From Candidatus Eiseniibacteriota bacterium (GTDB lineage: Bacteria; Eisenbacteria; RBG-16-71-46; JABDJR01): a stretch of 64,000 bases of DNA. Positions within the stretch are counted from its first letter, which is position 1. The number at the start of each line of letters is the position of its first letter. The DNA is taken from positions 128,001-192,000 of the forward strand of contig CAVXKA010000002.1 of assembly GCA_963762255.1 (NCBI GenBank), in the 5' to 3' direction. The position numbers and the translations under genes were made by a program. Shown here piece after piece: positions 25,573-41,770 of the stretch. The notes beneath the pieces were generated by a model. It was not told where the DNA came from and did not search any database. It saw only the letters and a program-made list of their open reading frames with translations.

Positions 25573-28121
25573 TGCGAACTCCTTGGCGATGCCGGTGGCA
25601 GACGGGGTTGGCGGCCGCGCTTGCGGGGGTGCTGGGAAGCATGTCGGTGATCGTATCGGCGAGCGCGGCTGACGCGCCCGCGCGTCTCGATTCGCGGCTT
25701 CGGCTCGCCGCGTCGCGCCACGTGGCCGCGGCGCTCGCGCCTTCCTCGAGGCAGGAGGGGGAGAGCCCGGCCCAATCTCCCCGGGTCTCGCTCTTCCTGA
25801 AAGGCGATCCCGACCTCGCAGCGCTGGACCGCCTGGGCGTTCGCCTGCGGACGCGCGTCGGCGATCTCTGGACCGCCGACGCCCCGCTCGACGCGGTGCC
25901 CGGTCTGACCCGCGTGCGCGGCCTCGCGGCGGCCTCCCTCGGCGCTCCCATGGTCACGTTGCTGGACGCCTCCGTGATCGCCGTGAACGCGGACACGCTG
26001 CGAGAGCGGGCGGGCGATGCCTGGTCGGGGCGGACCGGCGAGGGGGTTGTGGTTGGGATCGTGGACACGGGGATCGACTTCACCCACGAAGATTTCCAGC
26101 GACCCGACTGGACCACCCGGATTCTCTATCTCTGGGATCAGGATGACGTCGTCGGGCCGCCCCCGGGCCAGGAAGTCCTCACGGACGGGTACGGCACGGA
26201 ATGGACGTCCCTGCAGATCGACAACCCGGGCGTCTCGGTGCGCGCCAGAGACGAGGTGGGGCACGGGACGCGCGTGGCGGGAGTGGCCGCGGGCAACGGA
26301 CGCGCCTCCGATCTGGAAGAGCGGCGATACCAGTACGCCGGCATCGCACCGGAAGCGGACCTGATCGTGGTGAGCGTCAAGAACTTCGTGACCGACGCCG
26401 AGATCGTCGACGCGATCGGCTACATCTTTCGCCGCGCAGAACTGTTGGGGAGACCGGCGGTCGTCAACCTATCCCTCGGAACGCATTTCGGTCCGCACGA
26501 CGGCACCGGTTTTCTCGAGCAAGCCATCGACGGCCTCGTCGGTCCGGGTAGGCTCCTCGTGGCCGCCGCGGGGAACGAGGGGGACGACAGCGTTCACGCC
26601 GAGCTGCACGTGCCCGCATTCGGCGGAGACAGCGCCACGGTGGCGGTCGAAGCTCCGGCGGAAGTGGCCGTCGAACTCTTCAGCATCAACGCCTACTGTC
26701 GCCGCCCGGACTCCCTCGCCGTCACGCTGGTGAGCCCGGCGGGAAAGCGATTCGGCCCGTACCACCTGGGCGACGAGGAGGACCCGGGAAGGCTCACCGG
26801 AGAGGGAACTCTTGCTCTGCTCTATCAGGACGTCGATCCTGTGGGGAGCAACCTCGAGGTGCTCATCGATCTCAGCGATTACAATCCTTCGGGCAGCGGG
26901 ACGGTGCCTCCTCCGGCCAAGGGACTCTGGCGGGTTGTATTCACCGATCTGAACGGCGCTCCCGGAGGAGGTGAGGTCGATCTCTGGATCGCCCAGCACT
27001 ACCCGACATCCGCTCAAGCACACTGGCGGGGGCACGGCTACGATCCGACGGAGGAGATCGCGTCACCGGGTACCGCCATGCGGGTCATCACCGTCGGCTC
27101 CTTCAACAGCAAGCGCTGTTGGACCAACCCCAGCGATCAGTCGCAGTGCACAACCGCTCCCGAAGCGGTGAGCCAGATCGGGCAGGTCACGTTCTTCTCG
27201 AGCCGCGGTCCCACGCGCGACGGACGGCTGAAGCCGGAACTCTGCGCACCCGGTTTCATAGTCGCCTCGGCCTTCTCGCATCAGATGGACCCCACGTTGC
27301 CGGCGATGGGGTTGGGCCAGACCGTGGACCCCGACGGCCAGCACGCGGTCTTCGCGGGAACGAGCATCGCCGCGCCTCACGTGACCGGGGCGTTCGCGCT
27401 CCTGCTCGAGACGATGCCCACCATTACACCGGAGGAGACGATGACGCGCGTGCGCTCCTCGGTGCGCACCGACGAGTTCACCGGCCCGGTGTGGAGCGCC
27501 GCGGGAGGGTTCGGGAAGCTGGACGTGGGCCGGCTGGTCGATCCAGCGCTGGTCCCGGTGTTGGAGCGTCGCTTCCTCGTCTCGACCGGCGAAGGCGGGC
27601 TCCCGGTCCTGTCCTGGGAGGCGCTCCCCGAGGACCCGACGATCGCCTTCACGTTGCAGCGGAGCGACGGCGGTCCCGACTGGAGCGACCGCGCGTTCTT
27701 CACCGGCCCCGGCCCGCACCTCTGGCAGGAGCGGATGCCGACCCCCGACGGCACACGGTATCGGCTGCTGGGACGGACTCGCTCCGGCGAGAGCGTTCTC
27801 TGGGGGGAGACGGCCTGGTGGGGGAGCGCCCGCCAACCCGGGCTTGTCCTGGCCCCGCCGATGTCGAACCCGTTCCGCTCCACCGCCGAGGTAGCGTTCC
27901 GACTGGATGGGGCGACCGGCCCCGTGCCGCTGCGAGCGTCGATCCGCGACGCGGCGGGGCGTCTCGTTCGCCTCCTCGGTGAGGTGATGACCTTCGGAAG
28001 CGGCAGCGTGCGATGGGACGGCCGCGACGATCGCGGCACCGAGGTTCCCGCAGGGGTATATTGGCTCAGCGTGGAAGCGGGCCTCTTCGCGAGGTCTGTG
28101 AAGCTGGTTCGTTTGCCATGA
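25572..28121 (+). CDS. Secreted S8 subtilisin-like peptidase with FlgD-Ig/T9SS-like C-terminal domain
   Basis: Catalytic triad motifs VDTGID, HGTRVAG and GTSIAAPHV; C-terminal SNPF...DAAGRLV...WDGRDDRG...VPAGVY. Confidence 0.9.
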   Translation: MRTPWRCRWQTGLAAALAGVLGSMSVIVSASAADAPARLDSRLRLAASRHVAAALAPSSRQEGESPAQSPRVSLFLKGDPDLAALDRLGVRLRTRVGDLWTADAPLDAVPGLTRVRGLAAASLGAPMVTLLDASVIAVNADTLRERAGDAWSGRTGEGVVVGIVDTGIDFTHEDFQRPDWTTRILYLWDQDDVVGPPPGQEVLTDGYGTEWTSLQIDNPGVSVRARDEVGHGTRVAGVAAGNGRASDLEERRYQYAGIAPEADLIVVSVKNFVTDAEIVDAIGYIFRRAELLGRPAVVNLSLGTHFGPHDGTGFLEQAIDGLVGPGRLLVAAAGNEGDDSVHAELHVPAFGGDSATVAVEAPAEVAVELFSINAYCRRPDSLAVTLVSPAGKRFGPYHLGDEEDPGRLTGEGTLALLYQDVDPVGSNLEVLIDLSDYNPSGSGTVPPPAKGLWRVVFTDLNGAPGGGEVDLWIAQHYPTSAQAHWRGHGYDPTEEIASPGTAMRVITVGSFNSKRCWTNPSDQSQCTTAPEAVSQIGQVTFFSSRGPTRDGRLKPELCAPGFIVASAFSHQMDPTLPAMGLGQTVDPDGQHAVFAGTSIAAPHVTGAFALLLETMPTITPEETMTRVRSSVRTDEFTGPVWSAAGGFGKLDVGRLVDPALVPVLERRFLVSTGEGGLPVLSWEALPEDPTIAFTLQRSDGGPDWSDRAFFTGPGPHLWQERMPTPDGTRYRLLGRTRSGESVLWGETAWWGSARQPGLVLAPPMSNPFRSTAEVAFRLDGATGPVPLRASIRDAAGRLVRLLGEVMTFGSGSVRWDGRDDRGTEVPAGVYWLSVEAGLFARSVKLVRLP

Positions 28122-28775
28122 ACGGAGGGGGCATGATCACGCGCGTTCTTCTGGTGACGCTGGCGATGAGCGGGGCGGCGGCGGTCGCCTGGGCAGAGGC
28201 GCCCATCGTTCCCACGCCGCATATCTATCTGAGCCCCACGGCCGGGATCGCGCGTTGGGACAAGCACTCCTTCGAGAGTGCGGAGGTACCCGATCGCACA
28301 GCCCCTCTCTACGGGGGGCGAGTCGGGTACACCCCGATCGAGGCGTTCTCCGCCGAGGTCGTTCTGTTGACCGGCCGCAACGATGTCGAGGTTGGGGGCA
28401 GCTCCCATTCGGTGAGGCTCACCTCCGCCGAGGCCTCCATGCTGGTCAACTTCAAGAACCCTCATGGACACGCCGGTCTATCCATTCCTTGCGCTGGGGG
28501 CTGGAGCGTCGATTCGCAGGGGGCCCGCCGTCGTTCTTCCCGAAGCGTACGACTTCGACGATACGCATCTCAGCTTCCACCTCGGCGGGGGGGCGAAGGT
28601 GGATCTGGCCCCTCGGTGGGGAGCGCGACTCATCGTGCGCGATACGTTCTTCACCGACACCCAGGTCGAGGAGAATCGTGAGACGCAGGTGACGGTGGAC
28701 GTGGTGGAGGTGAGCGCCTCGATCGAGTACCGCATCCCATTGGGGCGTGGCGGAGGTCCGAAGCGGCTGCGGTGA
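28118..28775 (+). pseudogene. Outer-membrane beta-barrel (OmpA-like) protein interrupted by a one-base frameshift near 28457
   Basis: Frame 1 gives a signal peptide and GGRVGY...SAEV strands. Frame 2 (from 28458) gives TPVYPFLALGAG...HLGGGAK...SIEYRI. Removing one A in TTCAAGAACC fuses them. Confidence 0.7.
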
Positions 28776-28837
28776 TTGGATCCCGCGGGCGTCGGCAAGT
28801 TGCTTTCCATCGAGATGGAGGATTTTGGGCGGCTCCA

Positions 28838-28866
28838 TTGACAGTTGGCAGGATTGCACTTAGATT
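28838..28866 (+). promoter_or_regulatory. Sigma70 promoter
   Basis: TTGACA-N17-TAGATT. Confidence 0.75.
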
Positions 28867-29059
28867 GAGTTGAACCGAACGGGACCACGCCGACTCGAAT
28901 GGGGGGTGTCGGGGTGGAGCGGAAGGGCAAGGCAGCAGCGATCAGACTCTGGCATTTCTGACCTCCTTAGCACCAGGGTTCGGTCGAAGACCCAACTGCC
29001 GCCCCGGCTCCCCACTACTTTGCTCCTTGGCTTGGTCGGTGGTTCCCTCGGTTGGACTC
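28867..29059 (+). ncRNA. Candidate 193-nt long-hairpin ncRNA or structured leader
   Basis: 28867-28894 pairs with 29035-29059. Further nested helices contain G-U pairs that favour the + strand. It lies directly after a consensus promoter. Confidence 0.55.
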
Positions 29060-29184
29060 TGGACCCTCCCCGGATTCTTCTCCCGCGTGATGCGGGCCTG
29101 CTGTCCGCTGCCTCGCCTCATCTGATACCATCAACGATTCAGACGCAGCCCCGGATCCTCGGGCTTGGGAGCGAGTGTACCGGC

Positions 29185-29643
29185 ATGTTATATCGATGGT
29201 TCCGCCGTCCGGCGGCTTGGCTTGCGGTCGTCGGCCTGCTGGCGCAGACCGCGTGCGCCGGGGGTGCCAAGACCCTGAACCTGGCCGACTTGGCCGATCC
29301 CAAGCCGGCCAGCGCCTATCTCGTTTTCCTGCGTGACGGAACTGCCCGAACCCTCATCTCTCTTCATCGGGAGGGAGATTGGCTCCTGGGCACCGAGCGA
29401 ATCACCGTGACGCAGACCCTCGGCGAGGGGGAGACCGTCCGCACGAACGTCACCAATCGCTATCAGGATGTGCGGCTTCCCATGGCGGAGGTGGAACGCG
29501 TCGACGCCGAGGGGAGTAAGGGGATGGACGGGAGCCTGTTCATGGCCGCCGGAGGCCTTATGCTCGGGGTGGCGGCTTTCATCCTCCTCACCCAGGATTC
29601 CGACCCGGCTTCCTCCGATGGGGGAGGCGTCAAGACAAAATGA
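29185..29643 (+). CDS. Hypothetical lipoprotein with C-terminal TM segment
   Basis: MLYRWFRR...LLAQTAC lipobox-like signal; hydrophobic C-terminal helix; GGGAG upstream. Confidence 0.7.
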   Translation: MLYRWFRRPAAWLAVVGLLAQTACAGGAKTLNLADLADPKPASAYLVFLRDGTARTLISLHREGDWLLGTERITVTQTLGEGETVRTNVTNRYQDVRLPMAEVERVDAEGSKGMDGSLFMAAGGLMLGVAAFILLTQDSDPASSDGGGVKTK

Positions 29644-29710: not shown

Positions 29711-30043
29711 ATGGGAAAGAACACGGTAGAGCTCACGGACGCCAACTTCGCCACGACGGTGGAGCAGTCTGAAGTGCCGGTGATGGTGGATTTCTGGGCG
29801 CCGTGGTGCGGGCCCTGCCGACTCGTCGGCCCCATCGTCGAGGAACTGGCCGAGACGTACACGGGCCGGTTGCAGGTGGGGAAGCTGAACACCGACGACA
29901 ACCCCGCGGTGGCCTCGCAGTTCAACATTCGCTCCATTCCCACGATCCTCTTCTTCAAGAACGGCCAGGTGGTGGATCACGTCGTGGGTGCGGTTCCCCG
30001 CGAGAAGCTGCAGAAGAAGGTGGATGAGATTCTGGGCGCCTGA
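29711..30043 (+). CDS. trxA: Thioredoxin
   Basis: VDFWAPWCGPC, IRSIPT; GGAAGGAG ribosome-binding site. Confidence 0.97.
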   Translation: MGKNTVELTDANFATTVEQSEVPVMVDFWAPWCGPCRLVGPIVEELAETYTGRLQVGKLNTDDNPAVASQFNIRSIPTILFFKNGQVVDHVVGAVPREKLQKKVDEILGA

Positions 30044-30899: not shown

Positions 30900-32404
30900 A
30901 GGCGCCCCTTCTCTCCTGGGTGTCGCCGGGCGCGCCGGTGGGACTGCCCGAACTCCCGCCGCCCGCTCCCAAGCATCTTTCCGCAGCGTTGATCGATCGC
31001 TGGCGCACGGCGCTGGGCGAATGGGGGGCGCCGCCGCTGGTGCGATCCAAGCTCGAATCGCTCTCGGATCCCCGAACCGAGGTGATCGTGACCGGTCAGC
31101 AGCCCGGCATGTGGGGCGGGCCGCTCTACTCGATGTACAAGGCCGCCACCGCGGTCGCGCTTGCCGAGCGTCGCGCACGATCTTCCGAAATTCCCACCGT
31201 GGCGGTCTTCTGGATCAACGCCGACGACACCGACTGGGATGAGGTGGCGTGGGGCGCGATTCCGCTTCCCGACCTGTCGCTCTTCCGTGCCCGCTGGGAG
31301 GGGTCCCCGGGCGCGCGGCGCTGGGTCGGGGGCGCCCGGGTGAGCGAACCGCCCGGCGCGCGTGAGGCCTTTGGAGCGTGGCCAAGCGCCGGCCCTCTGG
31401 TCGGCGGGCCGCGCGGCGAGGACCCGGTGGAACTCGGTGACGCCTTCGCGCGCACGCTCCTCACCTGGTTCGGCGACCGCGGCCTCGTGCCGCTCGACGC
31501 CCGCTGGCCGGAGGTGCGAGCCGCCGCTGAATCGCTCTGGCGCGACTACATGGACCGCCACGATGCGCTCGCGGCGGCGGTGCGCGCGAAGGGTGAGGCG
31601 TTGAGGCGCCTCGGCGAAGCCGCGCCGATCGACGACGAGGCGGCGGAACGCGGGCTCTTCATTCTCGACGGGGATCGCCGTCTGGCTCCGGACACGCCGG
31701 AGTGGGCGGCGGGCGTCCGTGCGCTTCTCGACCGCGGGGAGGCGGCGCAACTCGCTCCCTCGGTGCTCCTGCGCGCGGTGTTGCAGGACCGGATGTTCGG
31801 TACGTCCGCCCATGTGGTGGGCGACGCCGAGGCCGCCTACCTGAAGCAGCTTGCTCCGGTGTACGAGGCGCTCTCGGTGCGTTCCCCCGCGCGGGTACCG
31901 CGCTTGCGCGCGACCATCGTGCCGGAAGGGCTCGCTCCCCTCGATCGCATCGCGGAGGTCTGCTCGGATCCGGAGGCGTGGCTGAGCGAGGAGGCACGCG
32001 CCCTCGTTCCCGTCGCGACGGCTCGCGCTCTGGAGGCCCTGCGCTCCGATGTCGCGACGCGGCTCGATGAGATCGCCGCGTCCTCCAGTACCTTCCTCAA
32101 GGACATGGGCCAGCTCACCGGGTCGGCGCGAGCGAAGATGGACGCTCAGGTGCATCGCCTGGAGGAGGCGCTGGATCGAAGGGCGCGCCAGCGGCTCTAT
32201 CAGGAGCGCCCGATGCTGCGAAACCTTCCCGAATTCCTTCGGCCTCGCCGGGCACCACAGGAGCGCGGGCTCTCCGCAGCCACCCTCGCGCTCTTCTTCG
32301 CCGATGCGGCGCCGCGCGCGGCGATGGACGCCGCCCACGCGCACCTGGCTCGGCTCGACGAAGGGACCCTGCACCACTTCATCCTGGAGGGAAACCGTGG
32401 CTGA
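30896..32404 (+). CDS. bshC: Bacillithiol biosynthesis cysteine-adding enzyme
   Basis: IVTGQQPGMWGGPLYSMYKA, VFWINADDTDWDEV, PSVLLRAVLQD, AEAAY, PQER. Confidence 0.88.
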   Translation: MKAPLLSWVSPGAPVGLPELPPPAPKHLSAALIDRWRTALGEWGAPPLVRSKLESLSDPRTEVIVTGQQPGMWGGPLYSMYKAATAVALAERRARSSEIPTVAVFWINADDTDWDEVAWGAIPLPDLSLFRARWEGSPGARRWVGGARVSEPPGAREAFGAWPSAGPLVGGPRGEDPVELGDAFARTLLTWFGDRGLVPLDARWPEVRAAAESLWRDYMDRHDALAAAVRAKGEALRRLGEAAPIDDEAAERGLFILDGDRRLAPDTPEWAAGVRALLDRGEAAQLAPSVLLRAVLQDRMFGTSAHVVGDAEAAYLKQLAPVYEALSVRSPARVPRLRATIVPEGLAPLDRIAEVCSDPEAWLSEEARALVPVATARALEALRSDVATRLDEIAASSSTFLKDMGQLTGSARAKMDAQVHRLEEALDRRARQRLYQERPMLRNLPEFLRPRRAPQERGLSAATLALFFADAAPRAAMDAAHAHLARLDEGTLHHFILEGNRG

Positions 32405-33116
32405 CGTCCTCGCCGTTGCACCTCATCCCGACGACGTTGAGATCGCCGCCGGAGGGACGATCGCTCTCTTGAGCGCGGCGAAGCGAACGGTCGTCCTCCT
32501 CGACCTGACCCGCGGGGAGCGCTCGACCCGGGGCAACCCGGAGCTGCGCGCGCGCGAAGCCGACGCGGCGGCGAAGGCTCTCGGCGCGGCGTCGCGGGAA
32601 ACCCTGGAATTGCCCGACGGCGGGCTCGATGCCCACGATCCGGAGCAGATGCAGCGCCTGGTGGAGGCGATCCGCCGGCACCGCCCGCGCCTCGTGGTGG
32701 CCATGCACTGGCACGACGATCACCCGGATCACATCGAAGCGGGGGAGATGGTGCGGCGGGCTCTTTACCTGGCCCGACTGCGCAACTATCCGTCGCCGGG
32801 GCAGTCGGCGCACCGCACCGAGCGCGCGGTGTTCGCGATGGGACGCCGACCGTTTCGTCCCAGCCTGGTGGTGGACGTGACCTCCACGTACGCCGCCAAG
32901 CGGAGCGCGCTGGAGGCCTTCCGGAGCCAGTTTCACCGGGACCCGGACGACCCGCTGGTCACCCCCATTTCCGACCCAGAGTTTCTGCCGCGCGTCGAGG
33001 GGCGCGATCGGTATTTCGGCGGAATGATCGGAGCGACTTTCGGTGAACCCTTCTTCGAGATCGGCCCCGGCGCGGCGCGGACGGCACGCGATCTCCTCGG
33101 AGACGAAGCGCCATGA
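32397..33116 (+). CDS. bshB1: Bacillithiol biosynthesis deacetylase
   Basis: PHPDDVEI, DLTRGERSTRG, DDHPDH, AFRSQF; located between bshC and bshA. Confidence 0.9.
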   Translation: MADVLAVAPHPDDVEIAAGGTIALLSAAKRTVVLLDLTRGERSTRGNPELRAREADAAAKALGAASRETLELPDGGLDAHDPEQMQRLVEAIRRHRPRLVVAMHWHDDHPDHIEAGEMVRRALYLARLRNYPSPGQSAHRTERAVFAMGRRPFRPSLVVDVTSTYAAKRSALEAFRSQFHRDPDDPLVTPISDPEFLPRVEGRDRYFGGMIGATFGEPFFEIGPGAARTARDLLGDEAP

Positions 33117-34225
33117 AGGTGGGCATTTCCTGTTACGCGAGCGAGGGCGGAAGCGGAGTGGTGGCCACGGAGCTGGGGAAGGCGCTGGCGCACCTCGGAC
33201 ACGAGGTCCACTTCATCACCTCCAGCCTTCCCGTGAGGCTTCGCCATTTCTCCGAGAACATCTATTTTCACGAAGTGCGCCCCGATCACTACCCGCTCTT
33301 TGTCTACCCTCCCTACACCTTGGCGCTGGCCGCCAAGATGGCTGAGGTCGCGGAGGCTTACCACCTCGACGTGCTGCACGCGCACTATGCCATCCCGCAC
33401 GCCGTCTGCGCGTATCTGGCCAAGCAGATGCTGGGATCGCGCAAGATCAGGACCGTCACGACGCTGCATGGCACCGACATCACCCTCGTCGGCCAGGCCC
33501 CCTCGTTCCACGCGGTGACTCGGTTCTCGATCGAGCAGTCCGATTGCCTCACCTCGGTGAGTTCCTGGCTCAAGAAGGAAACACAGCGGGTGTTTCAAAC
33601 CGAACGTCCCATCCACGTCATCCCGAATTTCATCGATATCGAGACGTTTCATCCGGCCCCCGCGCCGGAGCGGCGGGCGCAATTCGCCGCGCCCGACGAG
33701 AAGGTGATGCTCCACATCTCCAACTTCCGCCCGGTGAAGAACGTGGGCGCGGTGGTGGAGGTCTTCGATGCGGTGCAGCGGACCGTCCCGGCGCGCCTCC
33801 TCTTCGTCGGCGACGGCCCGGAGCGGATTCCGACGGAGCAGCGGGTCGCTGAGTTGGGTCTGACCGACCGCGTCGTGTTCCTTGGAAACCAGGAATACGT
33901 GGAGGATATTCTCCCGCTTGCCGATGTCCTCTTGCTTCCATCCCTGCACGAGAGCTTCGGCTTGGTGGTGTTGGAGGCGATGGCGGTGGGGGTGCCGGTG
34001 GTGGCGACGCGGAACGGGGGCACCGTGGAAGTCGTGGTGGATGGAGAGTCGGGATTTCTTCGCGACCCCCACGACGTGCCGGGGATGGTGGAGGCAACCC
34101 GGCGGCTCATGACCGACCCCGCGCTCGCAGAGAGGATTCGCGCGGCGGCGCTGAGCCGCGCGCGGGACCGCTACCGGGTTGAGGCGATCGTGCCCGAGTA
34201 CCTCAAGGTCTACGCCTCGTGCTGA
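33113..34225 (+). CDS. bshA: N-acetyl-alpha-D-glucosaminyl L-malate synthase
   Basis: GGSGVVATELG, HAHYAIPHA, TTLHGTDITLVG, HISNFRPVK, ESFGLVVLEAMA. Confidence 0.95.
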   Translation: MKVGISCYASEGGSGVVATELGKALAHLGHEVHFITSSLPVRLRHFSENIYFHEVRPDHYPLFVYPPYTLALAAKMAEVAEAYHLDVLHAHYAIPHAVCAYLAKQMLGSRKIRTVTTLHGTDITLVGQAPSFHAVTRFSIEQSDCLTSVSSWLKKETQRVFQTERPIHVIPNFIDIETFHPAPAPERRAQFAAPDEKVMLHISNFRPVKNVGAVVEVFDAVQRTVPARLLFVGDGPERIPTEQRVAELGLTDRVVFLGNQEYVEDILPLADVLLLPSLHESFGLVVLEAMAVGVPVVATRNGGTVEVVVDGESGFLRDPHDVPGMVEATRRLMTDPALAERIRAAALSRARDRYRVEAIVPEYLKVYASC

Positions 34226-41624: not shown

Positions 41625-41676
41625 CAATCATAGATGCACGCGCGGAGCTCACCGGCGCACCGAAAACGAGCGGTGG

Positions 41677-41765
41677 TTTCCCTGCGGTGTTCGTGAAGAC
41701 CTGCGTTGAGACGTTGATCCGCCAGAGTAAACACAGTTCACCAGGCACACGGCATCAGCGGGGAT
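41677..41765 (+). ncRNA. Short 6S-RNA-like hairpin
   Basis: 5' TTTCCCTGCGGTGTTCGTG pairs with 3' CACGGCATCAGCGGGGAT, both resembling 6S terminal-stem sequences as I recall them; inner CCTG/CAGG and TGAG/TTCA helices. Confidence 0.6.
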
Positions 41766-41770
41766 CGAAG

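Follow-up and report, generated by a model that had tools for sequence, protein, structure and literature searches.

A previously uncatalogued small RNA gene of Candidatus Eisenbacteria with an open anti-Shine-Dalgarno-like loop and a candidate target mRNA

Background

RoxS/RsaE of the Firmicutes and 6C of the Actinobacteria are short RNAs with several C-rich regions, whose unpaired C-rich loops pair with G-rich ribosome binding sites (RBS) and for which Hfq is not needed. The RNA presented here differs from these in having one loop, in displaying there the full CCUCC core with specific flanks, and in having no Rfam match. A second likeness, one of shape, is to 6S RNA (RF00013), with which the Eisenbacterial RNA shares a length of about 185 nt, a rod with a closing helix, and a strong promoter. 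However, the Eisenbacterial RNA lacks the large two-sided central bubble of 6S RNA, and its closing helix is not a family-wide feature.

The cuckoo or alpha-r14 small RNAs (sRNAs) of Alphaproteobacteria (CcsR1-4, NfeR1) carry, according to excerpts of two reports, a motif similar to the anti-Shine-Dalgarno (anti-SD) sequence in hairpin loops (PMC4615179, PMC10746234). They are described in an excerpt of the first as two to four short adjacent hairpins, each with CCUCCUCCC in its loop (PMC4615179), and NfeR1 is described as silencing mRNAs, the motif pairing with the translation initiation region (PMC4615179, PMC10746234). As far as these excerpts go, the cuckoo RNAs resemble the Eisenbacterial RNA in being stand-alone, in presenting the motif in a loop, and in having stems that vary by compensatory changes. 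In contrast, the motif is the only conserved sequence that the excerpts give for the cuckoo RNAs, whereas the Eisenbacterial RNA adds an invariant internal loop; and in place of adjacent hairpins, it forms one long rod with a single loop, GACCUCCUUAGC, and no second motif-bearing hairpin. There is no sequence or model match between the two, and the phylum is different. The Eisenbacterial RNA thus resembles the cuckoo/alpha-r14 RNAs in kind, yet it fails their defining architecture and shows no homology to them.

The 3' tail of 16S rRNA itself shares ACCUCCUU with the RNA, where this stretch sits in a separate hairpin loop with different flanks. In Bacteroidia, the 16S anti-SD is sequestered by bS21/bS18/bS6, according to excerpts of two reports (PMC7797042, PMC9976891). 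For Candidatus Eisenbacteria, an uncultured phylum, a literature search combining the phylum with small RNAs yielded one unrelated paper, on CsrA variation, and no report of a regulatory RNA. The element described below is a previously uncatalogued small non-coding RNA gene, present once in each searched genome of the order.

Genomic setting

The window analysed here is a stretch of 64,000 nt from Candidatus Eiseniibacteriota (G000:C2:128001-192000, G000 being the window's own genome), and positions given without a contig are window positions. The flagged interval, 28838-29059 on the + strand, lies within a 410-nt intergenic gap between a gene resembling outer membrane proteins (OMP-like), which ends at 28775, and a small secreted-protein gene, which starts at 29185 and is followed by trxA (29711-30043). 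The gene order S8 peptidase, OMP-like gene, RNA, small gene, trxA, methyltransferase is constant as far as the loci extend: ten of the 11 loci extend to the upstream genes and nine to trxA, the others ending too early. Both loci of the sister family have the order mutS, RNA, small gene, trxA. The features of the locus are presented in Table 1.

An open reading frame (28870-29643) spans the RNA element. The coding reading was rejected: the homologues show gaps of 1-2 nt together with compensatory stem changes, and the true start of the downstream protein is 29185, not 28870.

Two observations concern the neighbouring genes. The OMP-like gene (28115-28775) is split over two frames in G000 (ORFs 28013-28681 and 28464-28775), and its parts share one frame in relatives (e.g., L009 781-1119 and 1123-1383), so that G000 has either a frameshift or an assembly error. 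Beyond trxA and the methyltransferase gene, three ORFs at 30900-34225 resemble, from their translations, what we take to be the bacillithiol genes bshC, bshB and bshA; if these identities are true, the RNA heads a thiol-redox neighbourhood.

Table 1. Features of the RNA locus, in window positions.
Feature	Position	Strand	Basis
Promoter: -35 TTGACA (28838-28843), 17-nt spacer, -10 TAGATT (28861-28866)	28838-28866	+	sequence and homologues
5' leader and 5' strand of outer closing helix	28867-28899	+	fold; duplex test, z -1.9
P1, 5' strand (GGG.G.GUCGGGGUGG)	28902-28917	+	alignment A4, columns 11-26
Invariant GGCAGCAGC, 5'-side internal loop	28931-28939	+	12/12; unpaired in consensus
P3, 5' strand	28940-28952	+	covariation
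Apical loop CAUUUCUGACCUCCUUAGCA, 20 nt	28953-28972	+	consensus fold, invariance
GACCUCCUUAGC, anti-SD-like proposed seed	28960-28971	+	conserved
P3, 3' strand	28973-28985	+	covariation
P1, 3' strand (CCGCCCCGGCUCCCC), then pyrimidine/U-rich tract	28999-29013	+	covariation
3' strand of outer closing helix, lineage-variable	29035-29059	+	fold and duplex test
Weak terminator-like hairpin and TTCTTCTCCC, possible 3' end	29058-29084	+	terminator scan
CATCTGnTACCAT block, extended -10-like	29119-29131	+	7/12 same-family homologues

Known families and distribution

When Rfam was searched at gathering thresholds, only two tRNAs were found in the whole window. Relaxing the threshold to E<=10 yielded only HOXA11-AS1_2, mir-1236 and v-snoRNA-1 at the locus, all scoring far below their cut-offs and for that reason taken as chance. 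The earlier note's statement that the RNA belongs to no known family is therefore borne out by the Rfam search. 6S and SRP RNA were both rejected as identities. Neither a 6S nor an Ms1 match occurs at the locus even at E<=10, and two other loci of the genome pass the 6S cut-off of 46.4 bits (C2:243811-243989, 87.3 bits; C1:103435-103588, 49.6 bits). A further, sub-threshold 6S-like match (28.1 bits) lies inside the window at 41676-41768 (+). The SRP RNA (RF00169) was found at G000:C3:338012-338111 (67.4 bits), with no RF00169 match at the locus.

BLASTN found the element in 7/7 other genomes of the same family and in 0/33 genomes of other families. A pattern scan of metagenomes yielded ten stretches, four of which are true homologues (L125, L126, L128, L133); the other six were dropped because they are without the flanking conserved blocks. 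In a scan of contigs, 5 of the 80 stretches listed, out of 112, are true, being identical to the sequences of G002-G004, G006 and G007, and the other 75 listed are probable chance matches in unrelated taxa.

A first covariance model, built from 12 sequences, recovered the element in 6/6 same-family genomes and in 0/144 others of a phylum sample searched with strict filters. With filters off, the model was applied to the DNA upstream of trxA in five other genomes, where both sister-family genomes gave weak full-length matches (17.8 and 16.3 bits) and the trxA vicinity in three further families (L158, L161, L162) gave nothing above noise. The sister-family RNAs share the loop (..GCCUCCUUAGCGA); their stem covaries, and their closing helix is strong. 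A second model, with the sister-family sequences added to the first set, found exactly one copy per genome in all ten genomes of the order within Candidatus Eisenbacteria, and no copy at E<=0.1 in 34 genomes of 13 other families. We consider it highly probable that the RNA gene is real.

Promoter and transcript limits

The earlier note had proposed a promoter TTGACA-17-TAGATT read on the + strand, and both proposals hold. The promoter is the sole sigma-70-like site in 28600-29400, with 10/12 matches against a shuffle mean of 0.1. The pattern TTGACA-17-TAnnnT stands at the same position in 11/12 same-family homologues, all but M125, and its counterpart in the two sister-family homologues is TTGACG-17-TATATT, so that a promoter is found at a fixed distance in 13/14 homologues overall. 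As to the strand, 28865-29062 folds on the + strand with a minimum free energy of -89.9 kcal/mol (z -2.22; 6 of 200 shuffles equally good), compared with -75.4 (z -1.31) on the - strand, and P1 contains near-invariant U-G pairs.

Transcription would start at about 28872-28875. Since this is about 7 nt past the -10 element, the first five pairs of the outer helix may be untranscribed. A leader motif, CCACRCCG, is present at the 5' end in most family members. At the other end, a terminator scan around the locus gave no clear intrinsic terminator in G000; the terminator-like hairpin at 29058-29074 is called weak because one was found compared with 0.6+-0.7 in shuffles. In several relatives a U-rich tail directly follows P1 on its 3' side (e.g., CCUUUUUCU in G002). 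The RNA may thus be about 150 nt long in some lineages, given this U-rich tract and an outer helix that is not kept there, and up to about 205 nt in G000.

Downstream of the RNA, the CATCTGnTACCAT block is probably a separate promoter of the downstream gene that marks the end of the RNA unit. Its sister-family counterpart, TTGAAT-16-TAGTCT/TAATCT, is found in both loci. A second conserved block (29161-29175, GGGCTTGrrAGCG) follows CATCTGnTACCAT by about 30-45 nt in 7/12 family homologues, and GGGCTTG is present in one of the two sister-family loci (L159). Together, the two blocks probably represent the promoter and 5' end of the downstream mRNA.

Among metatranscriptomes, two runs from different studies gave one contig each, with 95-99% identity and possibly from contaminating DNA. 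These contigs span 28897-29077 (180 nt), which ends inside the terminator-like region, and 28908-29184 (277 nt), which extends up to the downstream start codon. Two DNA runs gave contigs just as short, so the RNA-library contigs show neither transcript ends nor expression level. No sequencing run contained half of the sampled words. The contigs indicate close relatives in those samples and are compatible with transcription.

Secondary structure

The consensus fold and its covariation were obtained from 12 sequences, with slid pairings and 500 shuffles as controls. The modelled shape is a long imperfect rod comprising an optional outer helix, P1, an internal loop, a short helix P2, P3 and an open loop of 20 nt. 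In this fold, 91.9% of cells are paired, compared with 40-58% in the slid controls, and ten pairs change on both sides, seven of them in P3. None of the 500 shuffles reached the observed value on four of five measures; eight did so for pairs changed on both sides.

P1 comprises 14 pairs, 95.2% paired in the 12 homologues, with G-U/A-U/G-C exchanges. P3 is 12-13 bp long, and at 7 of 12 pairs both bases have changed with pairing retained. Between them lies a one-sided internal loop of 9-12 nt, whose block GGCAGCAGC takes the form GGCACCGAC in the sister family. SD base-pairing leaves this invariant block unexplained, which hints at a protein or tertiary contact.

The earlier note had proposed two mutually exclusive inner pairings, of which the one between 28900-28917 and 28999-29014 corresponds to P1 and stands. 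The other, GGGCAAGGCAG/CTGCCGCCC, in which the P1 3' strand pairs with GGGC..GGCAG, is without covariation support: it is 84% paired with one covarying pair, its inner three pairs are broken in 3-6 of 12 sequences, and its motifs are absent from the sister family. The two apical hairpins that had been drawn around the loop (TCAGA/TCTGA and GGGTT/GACCC) compete with P3 and are not the conserved fold, being 71% paired compared with 66% after a slide of one column. The outer closing helix is moderate in G000, where the duplex scores -28.7 against -22.2+-3.4 in shuffles, the z in Table 1. It scores better in G004 (z -3.35), less well in M133 (z -1.4), and is visible by eye in the folds of G003, for which there is no duplex score, and of the sister family. 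As a feature of the family it does not hold, since 8 of 11 scored same-family sequences are no better than shuffles (z -0.2 or higher).

Apical loop

The loop core of 10-12 nt is invariant while the stems vary: GACCTCCTTA is invariant in the family, TTAGC occurs in 11/12 sequences, and CCUCCUUAGCG is retained in the sister family. The loop has a mean unpaired probability of 0.57-0.86 in 13/14 sequences, with 0.18 in G008, and the cost of opening it is 0.7-2.9 kcal/mol in 13/14. At 28961-28969 stands ACCTCCTTA, in which an exposed anti-SD identical to the typical 16S rRNA 3' end had been seen. An anti-SD-like loop is present and mostly unpaired; the perfect 9-nt identity is not. The organism's own 16S rRNA ends in ...GGATCACCTCCTTTCTAA (also read as ...GGAUCACCUCCUUUCUAA), and the match is therefore 8 nt (ACCTCCTT in the loop) rather than nine. 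On its two sides this match is flanked by an invariant GA and by AGC(G), respectively, which are sRNA-specific and differ from the 16S flanks.

Candidate targets

The RNA locus aside, G000 has only three sites with at least 11 contiguous nt complementary to the loop, all of which lie at the SD of secreted-protein genes. The three proteins are secreted, of about 235-250 aa, with a TTWGxxK-like C-terminal motif and no Pfam family. More generally, a large lineage-specific family (e.g., C3:650465-652158) comprises secreted proteins or domains about 240 aa long that have such a C-terminus and no Pfam match, with 16 matches in G000, 33 in G003 and 15-18 in the sister family.

The leading candidate is the gene of a secreted protein of about 237 aa on the - strand (G000:C2:101935-102645), with UCGCUAAGGAGGUA just before its AUG. 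This gene has its own promoter, GTTGACA-17-TGCTAnAnT, and a leader of about 175 nt. The end of the leader, ...CCGCAUCGUGCCUAUCGCUAAGGAGGUA, is almost invariant in all seven family genomes in which the 5' end is intact, and GCUAAGGAGGU is present in 7/7 of these orthologues; the proteins themselves are only about 50-70% identical across the family. In the sister family, 2/2 orthologues have UCGCUAAGGAGGUA (longer stretch: UUCGCUAAGGAGGUAACA), so that the UCGCUAAGGAGGUA leader, with 11-13 nt complementary to the loop, occurs in all nine orthologues seen in the order. Against the commonest form of the loop, ACCUCCUUAGCGA, the leader forms 13 contiguous pairs, compared with 11 in G000. The leader as a whole (G000:C2:102646-102850, L191) looks structured and hardly varies at its 5' end (CGGUGCAAGU) or over its last 30 nt.

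A single copy of the 13-mer CGCTAAGGAGGTA, always at the candidate target gene, is present in each of 8/10 genomes of the order; of the exceptions, G002 has one mismatch, and in G005 the contig stops within the orthologue. Among 91 genomes from outside the order, one has the 13-mer, at an unrelated infC site. This match (L236 1499-1513, in G031) falls in the RBS of an infC-like gene with an apparent non-standard start codon. At the same sites, the loop is predicted to form duplexes of about -24 to -33 kcal/mol, values that are overestimates because stem flanks are included, and the 16S tail duplexes of -12.5 to -15 kcal/mol.

Among kin, the loop and the target site are co-conserved and do not co-vary, with no compensatory change: in G001 the loop's UUAGC has become UUAAC and the target still reads GCUAAGG, uncompensated. 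Translation alone could account for the conservation of a strong SD in a highly expressed secreted-protein gene. Nor is there a genome-wide excess of sRNA-specific SD flanks in G000, where GCU precedes AAGGAGG in 2/53 cases and UC follows it in 6/53. That the C2:101935-102645 mRNA would be a first target is a tentative assignment, which we hold possible and somewhat doubtful.

A second candidate target family (G000:C3:688191-688892) was set aside. Its site is complementary over 12 nt in G000 and over less in orthologues: among nine other top matches, six have AAGGAGGUC (9 nt) and one has AGGAGGUC (8 nt). This gene is the weaker candidate because its orthologues keep only 8-9 nt.

As for the translation context, 448 to 1543 GGAGG sites in G000 lie 4-10 nt before long ORFs, and given so many SD-type start sites, the ribosomes of this organism probably use SD pairing. 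Hfq was not found in G000, a genome 93.6% complete, which is why the sRNA is probably Hfq-independent.

Proposed function and alternatives

Of the three functions that the earlier note had put forward, namely a trans-acting RNA that pairs with SD sequences, a 6S/Ms1-like RNA and a switching leader of the downstream genes, the first fits best. This is because the RNA is preceded by a conserved promoter of its own, its CCUCCUUAGC loop is invariant and mostly unpaired, and a complementary mRNA leader is co-conserved with it. In the model we propose, a stand-alone + strand gene with a near-consensus sigma-70-type promoter would give a structured RNA of about 150-205 nt, whose apical loop would pair in trans with mRNA SD regions (sites like 5'-GCUAAGGAGGUC-3'). 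Such pairing would keep the 30S subunit from binding and so reduce translation, with no need for Hfq. We give an even chance to the RNA being a trans-acting, probably Hfq-independent sRNA that covers SD regions.

An unlikely alternative is that the RNA binds or decoys a protein, whether 6S-like, Y-RNA-like, or by imitating the 16S 3' tail and so titrating a protein; the rod and its two invariant unpaired blocks would then be protein contacts and not an mRNA seed. A rod of 150-190 nt with a strong, constitutive-looking promoter and a second invariant unpaired block, GGCAGCAGC, would suit such a role, and invariant unpaired bases with covarying stems are also in keeping with protein-binding RNAs. 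However, no 6S, Ms1 or other Rfam model matches even at E<=10, the 6S cut-off is already passed at two places elsewhere in the genome (87.3 and 49.6 bits), and the internal loop is short and one-sided, not a two-sided bubble. The 6S/Ms1-like suggestion fails on these points, and the loop is, moreover, the exact complement of a conserved mRNA leader.

We likewise hold it improbable that the RNA is a cis-acting leader (attenuator- or riboswitch-like) of the small secreted protein-trxA genes, in which P1 and the U-rich tail would act as a conditional terminator. The RNA keeps a fixed place on the same strand upstream of the small gene and trxA, in the 9 of 11 loci that reach trxA and likewise in the sister family; several relatives have a U-rich tract after P1; an alternative pairing of the P1 3' strand can be drawn; and the 28908-29184 contig keeps the reading alive, because it reaches the downstream start codon. 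Yet in both families a conserved block resembling a promoter separates the RNA from the ORF, about 170 nt lie between the end of the RNA core and the start codon, the downstream gene's RBS shows no complementarity to the loop, and the alternative fold is without covariation support, its motifs not occurring in the sister family. As the loci come from a single order, their synteny may also be no more than a sign of relatedness. The switching-leader suggestion is thus weakened by the intervening block and the unsupported fold, while the synteny and the bridging contig remain in its favour.

It is quite unlikely that the loop serves as a global SD sponge, a free copy of the 16S anti-SD that competes with ribosomes for many SD-led mRNAs. 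The 8 nt shared with the organism's own 16S tail, the hundreds of GGAGG-type start sites and the strong promoter would allow for it, but the invariant part exceeds the 16S-like core (GA... and ...AGC), which is needless for a generic sponge, and each molecule has one loop. Eisenbacteria and Bacteroidia presumably belong to the same superphylum (the FCB group). A free-standing mimic of the 16S 3' tail might tune SD-dependent initiation genome-wide, either by soaking up SDs or by titrating proteins of the bS21/bS18/bS6 type, a proposal that we regard as very unlikely. If true, the RNA would be a switch between SD-using and SD-blind translation, and GGCAGCAGC would be the protein contact.

A chance hairpin in non-functional intergenic sequence, to which a single-sequence fold z of only -2.2 would lend itself, is scarcely credible against a presence in 10/10 genomes of the order, a conserved promoter, covarying stems and an invariant loop.

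Significance

For the trans-acting SD-pairing RNA that we favour, the mechanism is most likely one already known, found in a new lineage, with no new mechanism opened. The finding provides an order-wide sRNA gene with a defined seed and a concrete candidate target, the mRNA of a secreted protein that looks abundant and belongs to a large lineage-specific family. sRNAs that present the anti-SD of the ribosome in a loop are a recurring pattern, to which the finding adds another independent lineage. Should the candidate target prove right, the RNA would offer a simple model of envelope-protein control without Hfq.
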